In this document: in pieces, positions 42,234-50,929 of the stretch | Position numbering within the stretch: the first letter of the stretch is position 1 | Layout of the letters: every line of letters begins with the position of its first letter | NCBI GenBank assembly: GCA_963722145.1 | Contig: CAVRLW010000005.1 | Location: 70,773 to 134,772, forward strand | Source of the DNA: an uncultured Actinomycetota bacterium | Lineage (GTDB): Bacteria > Actinomycetota > Actinomycetes > Actinomycetales > Micrococcaceae | Length of the DNA: 64,000 nucleotides | Reading direction: 5' to 3' | Translations under genes and position numbers: made by a program | The notes under the pieces: model-generated | Seen by the model: only the letters and a program-made list of their open reading frames with translations | What the model was told of the DNA's origin: nothing | The model's database searches: none

Positions 42234-42584
42234 CTAGGCCGCCGCCAGCCTTCGGGCCCGGGGAAGCGCGGCCGTTTCCGCCGGCGCCACGATGCTGAGC
42301 TGGCACTCTGACTGAAGCGGATCAATGGTGGCCGGCAGGTGGTGGGAGGCGGAGCACTCCCGCAGTTGCTCGAGGGCCGCCGGTTCCACCACGGCGTGGC
42401 TGACATCCAACACCAGATGGAGTCCTTCCCTCAGGTGGTTTGCCCGCTTGACCACCACGTACAGGGCTTGGAGGCTCCTCGCCGTCACATGTCCCTGCGC
42501 TGCTACTTCTGCCTGACCGCAATCGAGGTCGAGCCTGACAAGAACCCGGAGTTTGTGGTTCAAACGATTCCCCTGTTCGTGCAT
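42234..42584 (-). CDS. Hypothetical protein (possibly STAS-like)
   Basis: LVLDVSHAVVEPAALEQL segment resembles a STAS fold; start uncertain. Confidence 0.5.
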   Translation of the reverse strand: MHEQGNRLNHKLRVLVRLDLDCGQAEVAAQGHVTARSLQALYVVVKRANHLREGLHLVLDVSHAVVEPAALEQLRECSASHHLPATIDPLQSECQLSIVAPAETAALPRARRLAAA

Positions 42585-42989
42585 TTACCGCTTGGCCGCG
42601 ACGCTGCGACCGCTTTGGCCGCGACGCTGCGACCGCAACCCAGCCTAGGCAGGGAGTGTGACCTAGGCAACAGTGCGCTTCATATCGGGGAAACCTCGCG
42701 TTATGTGCCGGTTTGTTGGCGAAAAAGTGTTGATCGGCGGGCCCGGTGTATTGTAAAGGGGGCCCCACGGCGACCATCCGGCACTTGGCACCAGTCCAAG
42801 ACGCAACGGAGAGCGGCATCGTGGCCCCCTTGCCGCCGCGGCGAGGAACTGCATCTTCGGATGCAGGACGAGCCAGCGCCGGCCAGCCAGTCCACTCTGC
42901 GTTTCGCGCCTCTCAACACTCCGGCGTGGCCCGCGTGGGTACTGACAGCCAGAATCCGGGCACCAGGCCCGGCCGACTTAGAGGAACAC

Positions 42990-44051
42990 ATGACACACCC
43001 CTTCGACAGCCCAGACGACGTCCGCGGGGCGGATTTCCGCGAGCGGCGGCGGCCCGTGAAGAAACGCCGAGGCCGCAAGGTGCTGGTCGCCGTCGCCGTC
43101 GTAGTGGCGCTCGTCGCGGTGGTGGCTGGCGGCTACCTCTTCAACCTCGCACGCACTTTCGACTCCGGTTCGAGCAAAATTGACCAGGCCTTCCCGGACG
43201 AGTCCACGCGTCCGAAGAAGACGGACACGGCGATGAACATTCTGGTGATGGGCAGTGACAGCCGTGGCGCCACCGAGTCTGATACCGCGGCCGGCACGTC
43301 CACGGACCAGCGTGCGGACGCGCTGATGCTCATGCATATCCCGGCGGACCGCAAGAATATCTACACCATGTCCATCATGCGCGACCTCTGGGTGGACATC
43401 CCGGGACACGGCGAGGCGAAGATCAACTCCGCACTGGCCCTTGGCGGTACGCCGCTGATGGTGCAGACCATCGAGTCGACCTTCCAGCAGCGCATCGATC
43501 ACGTCGCGATGATCGACTTCGAGGGCTTCAAGGGCCTCACGGACGCGCTGGGTGGGGTGAGCGTGAATATCAAGGTGCCGTTCACCTCGACTGCGCTGCC
43601 CGGCCAGTCCTTCGCCCCGGGCCAGCACACCTTCAACGGAACCGAAGCGCTGGCCTTCGTGCGCGAGCGCCATGCCTACGCCGACGGCGACTACCAGCGC
43701 GTCCGCAACCAGCAGGAGTTCCTGCGGGCCATCATCAAGAAGTCGATCGCCGGCCAGACGCTGAGCAACCCGATCACGATCAACAACATGGTGGGCGCAG
43801 TCTCGCCGTTCGTCACGGTCGACAAGTCCTTTGACTCGGGAACCGTGGCCGGCCTGGCGTTCGAGCTCAGAGACATCCGGGCGCAGAATACCGTCATGTT
43901 CACACTGCCGACCGGGGGCATCGGAACGTCCACGGATGGCCAGTCGATCGTGCTGACCGACCCGAACGCCATCCAGGAAATCTCCGCGGCGATGGCCGCG
44001 GATTCCCTGGGCGAGTATGTCGCGGCGAACAAGTTCGAGAACGGGAACTGA
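42990..44051 (+). CDS. LCP (LytR-CpsA-Psr) family protein
   Basis: N-terminal TM; NILVMGSDSR, RADALML, SIMRD, KINSA, FVRER, DYQRVRNQQ; RBS GAGGA before ATG 42990. Confidence 0.92.
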   Translation: MTHPFDSPDDVRGADFRERRRPVKKRRGRKVLVAVAVVVALVAVVAGGYLFNLARTFDSGSSKIDQAFPDESTRPKKTDTAMNILVMGSDSRGATESDTAAGTSTDQRADALMLMHIPADRKNIYTMSIMRDLWVDIPGHGEAKINSALALGGTPLMVQTIESTFQQRIDHVAMIDFEGFKGLTDALGGVSVNIKVPFTSTALPGQSFAPGQHTFNGTEALAFVRERHAYADGDYQRVRNQQEFLRAIIKKSIAGQTLSNPITINNMVGAVSPFVTVDKSFDSGTVAGLAFELRDIRAQNTVMFTLPTGGIGTSTDGQSIVLTDPNAIQEISAAMAADSLGEYVAANKFENGN

Positions 44052-44126
44052 GTCCCGCCAGGTGAGGCGCCAGGGGAGGCCCTTGGACCCATGGTCCGCG
44101 GCCGGCTGCAGTGGTAGCGTCCGTTC

Positions 44127-45239
44127 ATGGGGAACGCTCCGGAGCCAGCAGCCGCGGCTTCCGCGGCGTCCCCGTCCCCTCCCTCGTCCCCGGCGGCGGG
44201 CCGTCGCCGTCGGCTAGTTCTGCTCCTAGGGGCGCTGCTCGCAGTCGCGCTCGCCGTCGCCGTCGCGGTCTCGGCATACGTTCTCTCCCGGCAGCAGGCC
44301 GGGGACCCCACACCCGACGGGGCCGTCACCCCGGCGATCGCGCCTGCGACGGCACCCAGACTGCCCTCGCCCTCGCCGCCACCCAGCCCCACGCCCACGC
44401 CGGAACCACCCGCCGTCGCCCTCAACATCTTGCTGATCGGGAGCGACAGCCGGGTGAATGAGCGGGCGGTGGCGGCCGGCGGCGCCGCCTCCGACCAGCG
44501 CGGCGACGCCCTTGTGCTGATCCACCTCCCGGCGGACCGGCAGAGCGTCTACGGCATCTCGATCATGCGCGACCTTTGGGTGAACATCCCCGGCCGCGGA
44601 TCCGCGAAAGTGAACGCCGGACTGGAACTTGGCGGGCTGCCGCTGATGACGAAGACAGTGGAGGCGCTGCTGGGCCAGCACATCGACCACACGGTGATGC
44701 TGGACTTCCAGGGGTTCGCGGCCATGACAGACGCGCTCGGCGGTGTCGACGTCGATATCAAGCGGTCATTCACCAGCACCGTAGATGACAGGGTGTATTT
44801 TCCGGCGGGCGTGAACCGGCTCAACGGGCTGCAAGCCCTGGCCTTTGTCCGCGAGCGCCATGCCTTCGCCGACGGCGACTACCAGCGGGTCCGGAACCAG
44901 CAGACGTTCTTGAAAGCCATGATGGCCAAGATGGCTTCCGAAGGCGGGCTGGCGGACCGCGACACCGTCCGCAAACTCATCAAAACGGTGTTGCCGCACG
45001 TGACCCTGGACGCAAGCTTCACCATGGAGTCGCTGGAAAACCTCGCCTTCAGCCTCCGCAACACAGCGCCGGGACGTGGAGTGTTCTTCACGCTGCCGAC
45101 CGCCGGCACCGGGTTCAGCCGGGACGGCCAGTCGATTGTCCTGCAGGACCCTGCCGCGACTGCCGCGGTCTCCGCCGCGCTGGGCTCGGGAACGCTCGCC
45201 GGCTACGTGGCGGCCAACAATCTTCAGAACGGCAATTGA
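44127..45239 (+). CDS. LCP family protein, second tandem paralog
   Basis: NILLIGSDSR, RGDAL, SIMRD, FVRERHA, DYQRVRNQQ. Confidence 0.92.
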   Translation: MGNAPEPAAAASAASPSPPSSPAAGRRRRLVLLLGALLAVALAVAVAVSAYVLSRQQAGDPTPDGAVTPAIAPATAPRLPSPSPPPSPTPTPEPPAVALNILLIGSDSRVNERAVAAGGAASDQRGDALVLIHLPADRQSVYGISIMRDLWVNIPGRGSAKVNAGLELGGLPLMTKTVEALLGQHIDHTVMLDFQGFAAMTDALGGVDVDIKRSFTSTVDDRVYFPAGVNRLNGLQALAFVRERHAFADGDYQRVRNQQTFLKAMMAKMASEGGLADRDTVRKLIKTVLPHVTLDASFTMESLENLAFSLRNTAPGRGVFFTLPTAGTGFSRDGQSIVLQDPAATAAVSAALGSGTLAGYVAANNLQNGN

Positions 45240-47483: not shown

Positions 47484-47491
47484 CCGCATGT

Positions 47492-47557
47492 CCCATCGAT
47501 TGCTCCGCAACGGCCCTTTTGAGCGCCCATAAGGGCCGTTGCGGAGCAATCGATGGG
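47492..47557. repeat. REP-like hairpin with perfect 27-bp stem and 12-nt loop
   Basis: CCCATCGATTGCTCCGCAACGGCCCTT / AAGGGCCGTTGCGGAGCAATCGATGGG. Confidence 0.9.
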
Positions 47558-47680
47558 GCGTCCGGTACCGCTATGTACAAAAAAATCGTCATCATGCTTA
47601 CTATTGACCGGTGTTAGGCACATCGATGTAGAAACTGCTCACTGGGGGCAGCAGACGCGGTGCCGGAGATGGAGTTTGTT

Positions 47681-48415
47681 ATGAGCGCTGAGCAGGGATT
47701 GACCCCGTTGACCGATGATGAGCTGATGGCGCAGGGCGGCACGGCCCTCCCCGACAAGGAAGTCGCCTCCGTCCTGGACCTGAACGCCGACCTGAACCTG
47801 GGGATAAGCGCCGCGGCGCCGATCGACCTCGGCATCGCGGCCAACGCCAACGTCGCCGCCCCGATTGACGCGGCCGCGTCGGCGAATGTTCTCTCCGTCG
47901 GGTCCGAGTCCCAGGCTCTTGCCGATCAGGGCACCATCATCAACCAGGGCGTGACGGGCGACGCCACTGCAGCTTCCACCCAGGACAGCGTCATCGATCA
48001 GGGCGCCGGCACGGCTGCCGGCACGGCTGCTGATGCCGGCACGGCTGCCGGCACGGCTGCTGATGCCGGCACGGTCCCGACCGGAACCGCCGACGGCGGA
48101 GTCCTCCCCGGCGGTGCGCTGCCGACGGATGTGGCCGGTGTTGCCGACGCCGCTGGCGCCGCGGGCGCTCTCAACGGCAACCTGCTCAACGTTGACGTGA
48201 ACCTGGACGCCGACGCGGACATTGCAGCGCCCATCAACGGTGCGGTGGCCGCCAACGCCAACGTAGCTGCGCCGATCGACGCCGCCGTCGGCGCCAACAT
48301 CGGCTCGATCGACAGCAACGCGTTCGCCGTCGCCCAGCAGGATGCCATCATCAACCAGGACATCCATGGCGACGCCACGGCTTCGGCTGACCAGCAGTCC
48401 GACCTGAAGCAGTAG
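47681..48415 (+). CDS. Acidic Ala/Asn/Gln/Asp-rich protein: leader + two 77-aa repeats; candidate processed fibre subunit
   Basis: GGAG RBS before ATG 47681; ungapped internal duplication; no Sec/Tat signal; no Cys, Trp, Tyr or Arg. Confidence 0.85.
   Translation: MSAEQGLTPLTDDELMAQGGTALPDKEVASVLDLNADLNLGISAAAPIDLGIAANANVAAPIDAAASANVLSVGSESQALADQGTIINQGVTGDATAASTQDSVIDQGAGTAAGTAADAGTAAGTAADAGTVPTGTADGGVLPGGALPTDVAGVADAAGAAGALNGNLLNVDVNLDADADIAAPINGAVAANANVAAPIDAAVGANIGSIDSNAFAVAQQDAIINQDIHGDATASADQQSDLKQ
48005..48074. repeat. 30-bp tandem repeat encoding (AGTAAGTAAD)2 linker
   Basis: GCCGGCACGGCTGCCGGCACGGCTGCTGAT x2 plus a partial copy. Confidence 0.9.
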
Positions 48416-48421
48416 CTCTAG

Positions 48422-50929
48422 ATGAACACTGTGCACGGAGGGCCGTCCGGGCAGGACGGCCCTCCGGTGCCGCCCGCCCAAGGCGGTATGGCCTCCGGAG
48501 GTGCCGCTCCGGCGTCGTCCGTTGCTATCAGCCAGCAGCCGGTACCGGTGCGGGCCGCCGGCGTCCAACTGATCGGCGAGGCGCAGGGGTCCGGCTACAA
48601 GGAAGCTCCGTCCCTGGTGCGCCGCGCCGACGGCCAGACCATCCAGCTCACCCGCCTGCTGTACCTGGTGCTCGAGGCGATAGACGGCCAGCGGGGCCCG
48701 GAAGAAATCGCCGGGCACGCCAGCAACAGCTTCGGACGGCTCGTCAGTGCCGAGAACGTCCGCACGCTGATCAGCTCCCAACTCCTCCCCCTCGGCCTCC
48801 TCCGGCTGGCGGACGGTTCCGAGCCCGCGGTGAAGAAATCGAACCCGCTGCTGGGCATGCGCTTCCGGTACTCGGTGACCGACCCGGACCGCACCCGGAA
48901 GCTCACGGCGCCGTTCGCCACGCTGTTCAACCCCGTGATCGTGGTGGCGGTGACCGTTGCTTTCCTGGCCACGTGCTGGTGGGTACTGATGGTCAAGGGG
49001 CTGGCATCGGCCACGCATGAAGCCTTCGCCAACCCCGGCTTGGTCCTCCTGATCCTGGTGGTCACGGTGCTCTCGGCCGGTTTCCATGAGTTCGGCCACG
49101 CCGCCGCCGCCCGCCGCGGCGGCGCCACCCCCGGCGCCATGGGCACGGGCCTGTACCTGATGTGGCCGGCCTTCTACACCGACGTTACCGATTCCTACCG
49201 GCTGGGGCGGGCCGGCCGGCTGCGCACCGACCTGGGCGGACTCTACTTCAACGCAATCGTGGCCGTCGCGATCATGGGCATCTGGTGGGCCACCGGCTTC
49301 GATGCGCTCCTGCTGGTGGTGGTCACCCAGATCCTGCAGATGGTCCGGCAGCTGATGCCGCTGGTCCGCTTTGACGGCTATCACATCCTGGCCGACGCTA
49401 CCGGCGTGCCGGACCTGTTCCAGCGCATCAAGCCCACCCTGCTGGCCCTGGTGCCGTGGCGCAGGACAGACCCCGAAGCCAGGCTCCTGAAGCCCTGGGC
49501 GCGGGCAGTGGTCACCATTTGGGTGCTGGTCACGGTTCCCCTGCTGCTCTTCAGCATGGCCACCATGGTGCTGACCCTGCCGCGCATCCTGGGCACCGCT
49601 TGGGACAACGGCCTCAAGCAGCAGGCCTTGCTCACCCAGAGCATCGCCACCGGGGACGTCGCCGACGCCGCTGTGCGGGTTATCGCGCTCGCCTGCCTGG
49701 CACTGCCGGTGCTGGGCATCCTGTACATCCTGCTGCGCCTGGTCCGTCAGCTGGTCACCGGGCTGTGGCGCAAGACCCGCGGCAAGGCCCTGCAGCGCGC
49801 CACCGCAGTCGTTGCGATCGCGGCCGTCGCTGCGGGCCTCGCCTGGGCCTGGTGGCCCGGCGGTGACACCTATCGCCCGGTCCAGCCCTACGAGCGCGGC
49901 ACCCTCGCCGACGCCACCACCGCGGTCTTCCCGGCCGCCGCAACGGGCCGGATGGCAGAGGGACAGTCTGGCAAGACCGTTGCCCTGTGGCCGGAGGACG
50001 CACGCCAGCCCACCCGCGACGAGCCGCAACTGAGCATGGTCCTGGTCCCCCGTCAGGCCGCCACAGCCGGCTCGGCAGGCACGGCCGGCACCGCGGCGGC
50101 GCCGTCGTGGGTGTTCCCCTTCGACAGGCCGGCCGCTCCGGACGACGACGGCAATCAGTCCCTCGCGGTCAACACCACTGACGGTTCCGTGGTCTACGAC
50201 GTCGCCTTCGCCCTGGTCTGGGCGGACGACGGCGACACCGTGGACACCAAGAATGAGGCCTACGCCTTTGCCAGCTGCGCGGACTGCGCCGCCGTGGCCG
50301 TGGGCTTCCAGGTGGTCCTGGTTGTGGGCCAGACCCATGTGGTCGTCCCGGAAAACCTGTCGGCGTCGGCCAACTACAACTGCCTCCGGTGCCTGACCTA
50401 TGCGCTCGCGAGCCAACTGGTGCTCACCCTCGACGGGCCCCTCAGCGGCGACGGCATGGCCAGGCTCAACGCGCTGTGGCAGGAGATCGCGGCCTACGGC
50501 AAGGACCTGCGGAACCAGCCGCTCTCGGAAATCCAGGGCCGGCTCAGCGCGTACAAGGAACAGATCATGGCGGTCATCAAGGCCGATCCCAGTGCCACCC
50601 CGGCTGGGTCCGCCGGCACGGCCACGGCGCCGGGCACCGCACCCGGCGCAACATCTGGTGCCACCCATGCCGCCAGTACCGCGGCAGCTCCCGGCAGCAC
50701 GCAGGCTCCGTCACCGGGCGCCACCGGGACCACGCGGACGACGGCGCCGCCGGCCGGCGACGCCGCGCCGACCGGCGCTGCGACGTCGCCCGCGCCCGGG
50801 TCCGGGTCCACGGTGCCGGCCGAGCAGAAACCAACGCAGCCCGCCGCATCGGCACCGGCCGGTCCCACTACGCCCGCAGCGGGGACAACCGCGCCCGTGC
50901 CGGCGGGAACCACGCCGCCGGCTCCGTAG
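48422..50929 (+). CDS. PqqD/RRE-like domain + M50-type intramembrane zinc metalloprotease + C-terminal CxxC beta-repeat domain + Pro/Ala/Thr tail
   Basis: HEFGH at 49085-49099, PAFYTDVT, QLMPLVRFDGY third-ligand motif, multiple TMs; N-terminal strand-strand-helix pattern (LVRRADGQTIQL..LLYLVLEAIDG.R..EEIA). Confidence 0.8.
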   Translation: MNTVHGGPSGQDGPPVPPAQGGMASGGAAPASSVAISQQPVPVRAAGVQLIGEAQGSGYKEAPSLVRRADGQTIQLTRLLYLVLEAIDGQRGPEEIAGHASNSFGRLVSAENVRTLISSQLLPLGLLRLADGSEPAVKKSNPLLGMRFRYSVTDPDRTRKLTAPFATLFNPVIVVAVTVAFLATCWWVLMVKGLASATHEAFANPGLVLLILVVTVLSAGFHEFGHAAAARRGGATPGAMGTGLYLMWPAFYTDVTDSYRLGRAGRLRTDLGGLYFNAIVAVAIMGIWWATGFDALLLVVVTQILQMVRQLMPLVRFDGYHILADATGVPDLFQRIKPTLLALVPWRRTDPEARLLKPWARAVVTIWVLVTVPLLLFSMATMVLTLPRILGTAWDNGLKQQALLTQSIATGDVADAAVRVIALACLALPVLGILYILLRLVRQLVTGLWRKTRGKALQRATAVVAIAAVAAGLAWAWWPGGDTYRPVQPYERGTLADATTAVFPAAATGRMAEGQSGKTVALWPEDARQPTRDEPQLSMVLVPRQAATAGSAGTAGTAAAPSWVFPFDRPAAPDDDGNQSLAVNTTDGSVVYDVAFALVWADDGDTVDTKNEAYAFASCADCAAVAVGFQVVLVVGQTHVVVPENLSASANYNCLRCLTYALASQLVLTLDGPLSGDGMARLNALWQEIAAYGKDLRNQPLSEIQGRLSAYKEQIMAVIKADPSATPAGSAGTATAPGTAPGATSGATHAASTAAAPGSTQAPSPGATGTTRTTAPPAGDAAPTGAATSPAPGSGSTVPAEQKPTQPAASAPAGPTTPAAGTTAPVPAGTTPPAP

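Follow-up and report, generated by a model that had tools for sequence, protein, structure and literature searches.

The 64,000-nucleotide stretch analyzed here (the window; positions 70,773 to 134,772 of contig CAVRLW010000005.1, assembly GCA_963722145.1, from an uncultured actinobacterium of the Micrococcaceae) encodes a 244-amino-acid (aa) protein that contains two 77-aa repeats and is followed directly by a gene for a membrane protease (Table 1). The explanation that we tentatively favor is that the repeats are duplicated, enlarged core modules of a leader-bearing precursor and that the adjacent protease is its dedicated processing partner. This protease joins a domain resembling a RiPP recognition element (RRE; RiPP, ribosomally synthesized and posttranslationally modified peptide) to a site-2 protease (S2P) core. 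The repeat protein is probably a substrate or precursor of the adjacent protease, and hairpin units are a reasonably likely structural element of its repeats. The formation of an ordered cross-beta or fibrous assembly is rather doubtful. The analysis demonstrated a leader-repeat-spacer-repeat architecture, a strict pairing of precursor and protease genes that spans actinobacterial families, a split version of the same module, a secreted domain with two CxxC motifs (2xCxxC domain), and a period-2 conservation pattern.

The original prediction had described two repeats that align without gaps and share 38 of 77 residues, and the translation reproduced this alignment. Composition-preserving shuffles of repeat 2 (20,000) yielded a mean of 9.2 identities (standard deviation, 2.7; maximum, 21), which corresponds to a z score of ~10.7 for the observed value. 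The reported lack of Cys, Trp, Tyr, and Arg extends to the whole 244-aa protein, which contains one Phe, one His, two Lys, two Met, and 31 acidic residues; the net charge is -9 or -10 per repeat and -29 for the entire protein. The motifs that the copies were said to share (AANANVAAPIDAA, AAPI(D/N) twice with a spacing of 14, AN..S..S...A.A.Q, IINQ, and GDATA) are present in both, except that the terminal motif, given as Q..S...Q, was one residue off and actually reads Q.S...Q (TQDSVIDQ and DQQSDLKQ). At the DNA level, the two copies are identical at 136 of 231 positions (44, 57, and 35 of 77 at the first, second, and third codon positions, respectively). As the DNA identity is low and third positions are the least alike, the repeats stem from an old duplication held at the protein level rather than from a recent DNA repeat. 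The spacer between them includes a perfect 30-bp tandem repeat (positions 48005 to 48074; 2.3 copies, 100% match in Tandem Repeats Finder) that encodes GTAAGTAADA twice. Both length and sequence of the spacer vary among homologs, and the length variation suggests slippage-driven change.

More than 3,400 homologs of the precursor were found at an E value of ≤1e-3 among the candidates examined, most of them from Arthrobacter and Pseudarthrobacter, and 391 clusters at 50% identity matched it. In an even sample of 301 genomes of the class, 26 genomes from several families contained a match (E ≤ 0.001), ~20 of which were strong; the genome of the window itself carries a single copy. Family alignments revealed a common plan consisting of an acidic N terminus (L..EL.AE....LP[D/A]KEV.S.LDLN), repeat 1 ending in ..IDQ, the spacer, and repeat 2, which usually ends the protein at a conserved Gln. 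Leader positions L15, L23, P24, K26, E27, V28, and S30 are invariant or at least 90% conserved, and the acidic leader has no hydrophobic signal peptide. Among 28 diverse members, repeats within the same protein are on average 52.7% identical; between proteins, identity is 55.5% for orthologous copies of repeat 1 and 57.4% for those of repeat 2. Nearly the same consensus is maintained in both copies. Short single-repeat homologs, a search for which had been proposed as a check, exist as natural 104-aa versions (e.g., P0224 and P0252). In one subfamily (P0156, P0158, P0206, and P0265), an extended series of short units repeated in tandem (TVG.TADNLLG.VGN.LP.VDN) stands between a ELEAEMAESLPERALMS-type leader and the two repeats.

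Neither the precursor alone nor its profile matched any entry in Pfam, NCBIfam, or the PDB. Many homolog records in NCBI and UniRef are named "peptidoglycan-binding protein," a name backed by no model, which we consider a mislabeling in current genome records. Taken at face value, the name would fit an acidic metal-binding or cell wall-associated protein that is disordered in the cell and folds outside with Ca2+ or Mg2+, comparable to RTX beta-rolls. Such a role would also be consistent with the many acidic residues, with strands in which hydrophobic residues alternate with Asp/Asn (e.g., LNVDVNLDADADI), with the low confidence of the monomer model described below, and with the presence of wall attachment genes of the LytR-CpsA-Psr (LCP) family nearby in the window and at some other loci. 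However, LysM, PG_binding, SH3b, and LPXTG signals are absent, known Ca-binding repeats did not match, and the LCP neighborhood is not conserved across families. We therefore regard this explanation as very improbable.

In 12 of 12 genomes, which represent different families, the gene directly downstream of the precursor and in the same orientation encodes a homolog of the protease (43 to 71% identical, C-terminal domain included), and the genes flanking the pair are not conserved. This pairing is the main context of the repeats and was not part of the original prediction. A search with the C-terminal ectodomain of the protease alone identified 36 of the 301 genomes, including all 20 with a strong precursor match. 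The protease of the window matched model NF041824 (daptide_HExxH) with an E value of 5.5e-31 (108.1 bits) over residues 61 to 337, which span the RRE and the HExxH core, and the YydH/LiaK model NF058609 with an E value of 3e-8 (33 bits). Judged by these alignments, it is a homolog, but not an equivalog, of the daptide peptidase DapP and of YydH. DapP consists of an RRE fused N-terminally to an intramembrane site-2 protease and removes the leader of the daptide precursor, in which the leader motif is ELExMEAP (doi 10.1101/2023.03.08.531785).

The AlphaFold model of the protease (42 homologs in the alignment) contains an RRE-like fold of three strands and three helices at aa 49 to 121 with a predicted local distance difference test (pLDDT) score of 85 to 95; this region gave no direct PqqD match in the Pfam search. 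The membrane core is modeled as polytopic with the same pLDDT range (85 to 95) and places both HEFGH (aa 222 to 226) and the downstream RFDGYH in helices, with H222, E223, H226, D318, and G319 being invariant in all 42 sequences. The enzyme thus combines an HExxH motif in a transmembrane helix with a downstream Asp ligand motif, as is characteristic of S2Ps. Similarity to Peptidase_M50 (PF02163) was weak (E = 0.29; 10.9 bits versus a cutoff of 27.2), as was the best Foldseek match of the model, SpoIVFB (E = 0.11; probability, 0.89), and a PDB sequence search returned no match for the protease. The rest of the model comprises a poorly modeled linker, a six-stranded beta region (aa 578 to 670), two helices, and a disordered tail. 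Based on the charge distribution and the positive-inside rule, the RRE would be cytoplasmic and the CxxC domain extracytoplasmic. The module has two features expected of an RRE-dependent leader peptide system, namely, a co-encoded protein with an RRE fold and a colocated precursor with a conserved leader motif.

A split version of the module provides a further link between its parts. In a distant subfamily (loci L035 to L039, e.g., L036:4203-7694), three ~70-aa precursor genes are arranged in tandem. Split-version precursors, such as MAENEKDQAIDLTDEEIEQQSGEQLPDREAMSL-LNLNVAAPVNAAVAANVLSDGSVAYANAEQTAEITQSM, have an LPDRE.MSL junction followed by a core of ~37 aa (NANLAAPVNAAVAANVLSDGSVAYANAEQ.A.I.Q). 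The junction before these short cores is the same leader motif as that in the window precursor, and the short core matches the center of the window repeat (ANANVAAPIDAAASANVLSVGSESQALADQGTIINQ). Here, the RRE-HExxH protease has no CxxC domain, and a separate protein of ~230 to 260 aa with an AxA-type signal peptide bears the 2xCxxC domain. The 77-aa repeats are therefore best understood as enlarged, duplicated cores of a leader peptide family. As the separate protein has its own signal peptide, the CxxC domain is extracytoplasmic, and its fusion to the protease in some genomes and separation in others indicates that the three components are functionally tied. No Pfam or NCBIfam model covers the 2xCxxC domain, and none of the split-module proteins matches an NCBIfam model. 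The 2xCxxC domain was also observed in small stand-alone open reading frames (ORFs) of several other genomes, with two on a single contig (G138:C198).

An arrangement of three precursor genes in tandem is typical of RiPP and bacteriocin loci. Together with the homology of the protease to DapP and YydH, both of which are leader peptidases of RiPPs, and the conserved leader-plus-core organization, this layout speaks for the main rival explanation, namely, that the protein is a multicore precursor from which secreted bioactive peptides (bacteriocin-like or signaling) are released, either unmodified or modified remotely, and that it forms no polymer. The protease would then remove leader and spacer, the repeats would be soluble ligands, and the CxxC protein would serve as receptor, carrier, or immunity factor. 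However, neither the fused nor the split version is accompanied by tailoring enzymes, transporters, or immunity-like ABC systems at any of the loci inspected. Furthermore, the cores are strongly anionic, unlike membrane-active peptides with their cationic or amphipathic-helical character; at 77 aa and with a floppy, nonconserved spacer between them, they are unusually large for a RiPP; and the conserved face of small residues plus Gln/Asn resembles a packing surface. A secreted multicore peptide product without a polymer is accordingly an unlikely explanation in our assessment, with the qualification that the cores might conceivably be modified by unlinked enzymes.

Several more specific assignments were considered and dropped. 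For a double-glycine (C39/PCAT) leader, the spacing of ELMAQGG is one residue shorter than the consensus, other family members do not conserve the GG, and a C39 transporter is absent. A class III lanthipeptide leader of the ILELQ type was rejected, as the core has no Ser/Cys pattern and LanKC is absent, as was a proteusin/polytheonamide-like beta-helix peptide, for which the radical-SAM epimerase and methyltransferase are missing. Thr-Gln ester or isopeptide cross-links would require a conserved His or Lys, which is absent.

The stacked-repeat profile has a clear period of 2: even lags of its autocorrelation have z scores of 2 to 4.6, none of the odd lags exceeds the shuffle mean (z = -0.1 to -2.3), and local maxima occur at lags of 6, 14, and 18 residues. 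In the C-terminal half of the repeat, alternate residues are conserved (A.A.A.Q...I.Q...G.A.A.A.Q.S.I.Q), and one face of the repeat bears conserved Ala, Gln, and Asn. This pattern supports an assignment of the repeats as beta-type sequence. The AlphaFold model of the precursor (monomer; 113 sequences in the alignment) likewise contains strands and hairpins, but the stacked beta-arches or solenoid that had been predicted are not seen in this low-confidence model, which shows as disordered both the spacer (pLDDT of <50 for residues 114 to 159) and the half of each repeat that contains AAPI. A helical or globular fold, either of which would contradict a fibrous design, was not predicted, nor did searches of Pfam, NCBIfam, the PDB, and profiles identify a characterized nonfibrous domain. 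A Foldseek search with the same low-confidence model returned 0 matches.

The original prediction also likened the repeats to CsgA and FapC. In its full form, this idea holds that each repeat is an autonomous curli/Fap-like amyloid unit that stacks beta-arches into a solenoid and polymerizes as extracellular fibers. The strong period-2 conservation with its local peaks, the conserved Gln/Asn/Ala positions combined with a lack of aromatic and cationic residues, an all-beta model for which no known globular domain was found, and the possibility that the partner ectodomain acts as a built-in template are all consistent with such a unit. However, AlphaFold readily builds the solenoid of CsgA and FapC and predicted none here, and the AAPI half of each repeat was left disordered. 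The likeness is also limited to design, as none of the curlin, Fap, and chaplin Pfam models matched any of 43 family members at an E value of ≤10 (the window protein had no Pfam match at an E value of ≤1). The precursor lacks a Sec signal, and no csgB- or csgEFG-type nucleator, secretion, or channel genes are among its neighbors. Short homologs with a single hairpin-sized core of ~37 aa fit poorly with autonomous solenoid units, and the high negative charge of the protein is unlike that of known functional amyloids, such that counterions would be needed. An autonomous amyloid unit is therefore improbable, although amyloid formation as such is neither supported nor refuted by these data. A match to the grass antifreeze beta-roll PF21300 (E = 0.006 in 1 of 43 members), which hinted at a 14-residue coil, was discarded as noise, since the window gene was unmatched and weak matches also occurred in six of the unrelated control genomes.

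The ectodomain of the protease consists of three hairpin-like units, two of which have CxxC at the turn, and is modeled with six strands; C619, C622, C654, and C657 are invariant in the 42 sequences. An hhalign comparison aligned 32 columns of the repeat profile (IAANANVAAPIDAAASANVLSVGSESQALADQ) to unit 3 of the ectodomain (VVGQTHVVVPENLSASANYNCLRCLTYALASQ), with P values of 1e-3 (13 sequences) and 3e-3 (18 sequences). In this alignment, two turn serines of the repeat coincide with the CxxC cysteines, and the SxxS turn in the predicted repeat hairpins parallels the CxxC turns of the ectodomain hairpins. A hidden Markov model (HMM) of the 37-residue core matched unit 3 in the same register in ~12 of 18 ectodomains (best score, 13.3 bits) and in 12 of 18 scored above at least 95.5% of composition-matched shuffles. 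The resemblance between the repeat hairpin and unit 3 is suggestive, but not established. If true, subunit and ectodomain hairpins would share a shape, which fits docking by sheet extension.

Under the favored explanation of a leader-bearing precursor with a dedicated protease, the cytoplasmic RRE would bind the leader (L..EL.AE....LP.KEV.S), and the HExxH site would cut the leader off near the S-x-L-D/N-L-N junction, perhaps with a second cut at the similar LLNVDVN before repeat 2. Each module, once released, might then fold as a strand-[S]xx[S]-turn-strand hairpin to which a third strand is added, with Ala, Gln, and Asn conserved on one face. Extracellular modules could dock by beta-sheet augmentation both on each other and on the CxxC hairpin units of the ectodomain, which are similar in shape, giving rise to a cell surface beta-sheet assembly. 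Taken furthest, the module would be a self-contained machine for an actinobacterial surface fiber, in which the RRE selects subunits, the protease matures them and may aid membrane crossing, and the disulfide-locked hairpins of the ectodomain nucleate a cross-beta polymer. This extension has a low probability. If true, it would represent a functional amyloid pathway unrelated to curli, Fap, TasA, and chaplins and the first structural use of RiPP-type leader/RRE logic.

Several observations weigh against the favored explanation or its structural extension. The precursor model has a mean pLDDT of only 56.5 and a predicted template modeling (pTM) score of 0.27, and the ectodomain is modeled with similarly low confidence (pLDDT of 45 to 55). 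The charge of -9 or -10 per repeat disfavors spontaneous aggregation without counterions. The protease scores are far below the curated cutoffs of NF041824 (108.1 versus 300) and NF058609 (33 versus 225). The likeness between repeat and ectodomain is weak, with hhalign probabilities of 22% (13 sequences) and 10% (18 sequences), and the core HMM failed to reach significance in 6 of 18 ectodomains, among them 4 of the 5 from split-type modules. Finally, the module includes no exporter gene and the precursor no signal peptide, although a 21-kDa acidic product would have to leave the cell.

The closest described relative is the daptide system of Microbacterium (MpaA plus MpaP/DapP; doi 10.1101/2023.03.08.531785). 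Both systems occur in Actinomycetota, have a peptidase that is homologous over the RRE and HExxH core, and encode a precursor with an acidic N-terminal leader and an EL...P motif beside that peptidase. In contrast to daptides, the leader motif here is EL.AE....LP.KEV and the C terminus is Gln, and the peptidase is not an equivalog-level DapP. The cores are 77 aa in two copies (~37 aa in the short forms), rich in Ala, Asn, Asp, and Gln, and anionic, whereas daptide cores are short and aliphatic and end in Thr. Moreover, the tailoring genes DapB, DapC, DapD, and DapM and an ABC transporter are absent from the window and the other loci inspected, where no oxidative decarboxylase, aminotransferase, or methyltransferase gene was found either, and the peptidase carries, or precedes, a secreted 2xCxxC beta domain. 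The epipeptide system YydF/YydG/YydH and LiaK-type HExxH proteases of Bacillota similarly pair a homologous membrane HExxH protein with a small precursor. However, that precursor is unrelated, the similarity of the proteases is again well below equivalog level, and neither a radical-SAM epimerase nor a YydIJ transporter is present here.

Curli (CsgA/CsgB) and Pseudomonas FapC share with the window protein imperfect repeats rich in Gln, Asn, Ala, Gly, and Ser and predicted strand-turn-strand units, and the tentative resemblance of an ectodomain unit to the subunit recalls that of CsgB to CsgA, which would make the unit a possible template. They differ in that here the host is Gram positive, the protein is far more acidic, no model match, Sec signal, or CsgG/FapF-type channel was found, maturation is proposed to proceed via a leader and an RRE-S2P protease, and amyloid formation is a proposal. 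SpoIVFB acting on pro-sigma-K (PDB 8vjl), the weak best structural match of the protease, is likewise an intramembrane HExxH...D metalloprotease that removes an N-terminal prosequence from a soluble substrate. In the window system, however, the substrate is not a sigma factor, would be recognized by a fused RRE, and is linked to an extracytoplasmic domain.

To our knowledge, the only role described so far for RRE-fused site-2 proteases is leader removal from small modified peptides (daptides and epipeptides). Compared with known RRE-peptidase leader peptide systems, giant anionic beta cores, the lack of tailoring genes, and the CxxC ectodomain are new features. Here, the partners of an RRE-S2P protease in many actinobacterial families are anionic beta-hairpin cores of 37 to 2 × 77 residues that look unmodified and a secreted CxxC domain reminiscent of the core motif. 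A search of the literature on the family, actinobacterial amyloids, and RRE-peptidases found no account of the family, and only the daptide work surfaced. Whatever its product does, the module is an abundant, undescribed cassette without a family model. If the assembly idea is true, Gram-positive soil bacteria would have an additional, new way of making functional amyloid; if false, the module would still represent a new RRE-S2P substrate class and a candidate new family of peptide natural products.

Table 1. Features of the two-gene module and its upstream flank (window coordinates)
Feature	Position	Strand	Basis or remark
Prolyl oligopeptidase/oligopeptidase B family gene, 738 aa	45267-47483		Directly upstream of precursor gene
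Hairpin between prolyl oligopeptidase stop codon and repeat protein gene	47488..47565	+	RNA fold -73.9 kcal/mol, z -12.9 versus shuffles
Repeat protein (precursor) gene, 244 aa	47681..48415	+	ORF list, sequence
Leader-like N-terminal region, aa 1-30, LTPLTDDELMAQGGTALPDKEVAS	47681..47770	+	Conservation in family
Repeat 1, aa 31-107	47771..48001	+	38/77 identity to repeat 2; predicted strands 65-70, 76-92, 95-106
Spacer, aa 108-167, variable, Gly/Thr/Ala/Asp/Pro	48002..48181	+	Family alignment, pLDDT
Repeat 2, aa 168-244, conserved C-terminal Gln	48182..48412	+	Predicted strands 202-207, 213-229, 232-243
Partner protease gene, 835 aa	48422..50929	+	Starts 6 bp past precursor stop codon
Putative RRE-like leader-binding domain, aa ~43-125	48548..48796	+	AlphaFold and alignment to N-terminal part of DapP model
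S2P-like polytopic membrane metalloprotease core, aa ~165-480; HEFGH at 49085-49099, RFDGYH downstream	48914..49861	+	Invariant motifs, AlphaFold
Extracytoplasmic beta domain, three hairpin-like units	50144..50437	+	Invariant Cys, AlphaFold
C-terminal tail, disordered, Ser/Thr/Pro/Ala-rich	50600..50926	+	pLDDT ~30; length and sequence vary among homologs

The preferred start codon of the repeat protein gene is the ATG at position 47681, which has a GGAG 6 nucleotides upstream and at whose equivalent Met the homologs begin; other in-frame starts are a GTG at 47660 and an ATG at 47669. Upstream, the hairpin at 47488 to 47565 has a near-perfect stem of ~32 bp without a T-run behind it. It bounds the two-gene module on the 5' side and probably acts as a terminator or insulator. 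The stretch immediately 3' of the hairpin (47566 to 47640) is AT rich. Promoter and terminator scans found no consensus promoter, and the sole terminator-like site is on the opposite strand, with the site count being below that of shuffles. The neighbors of the gene encode the prolyl oligopeptidase, LCP proteins, and RibD_C. As synteny of the prolyl oligopeptidase gene is restricted to the genus (L031), it probably does not belong to the module. Two adjoining LCP family genes (570 and 370 aa) are located farther upstream (42339 to 45239), and LCP genes also flank the module at three loci of another family (L022, L030, and L032). This proximity may reflect synteny or a link to the cell wall.

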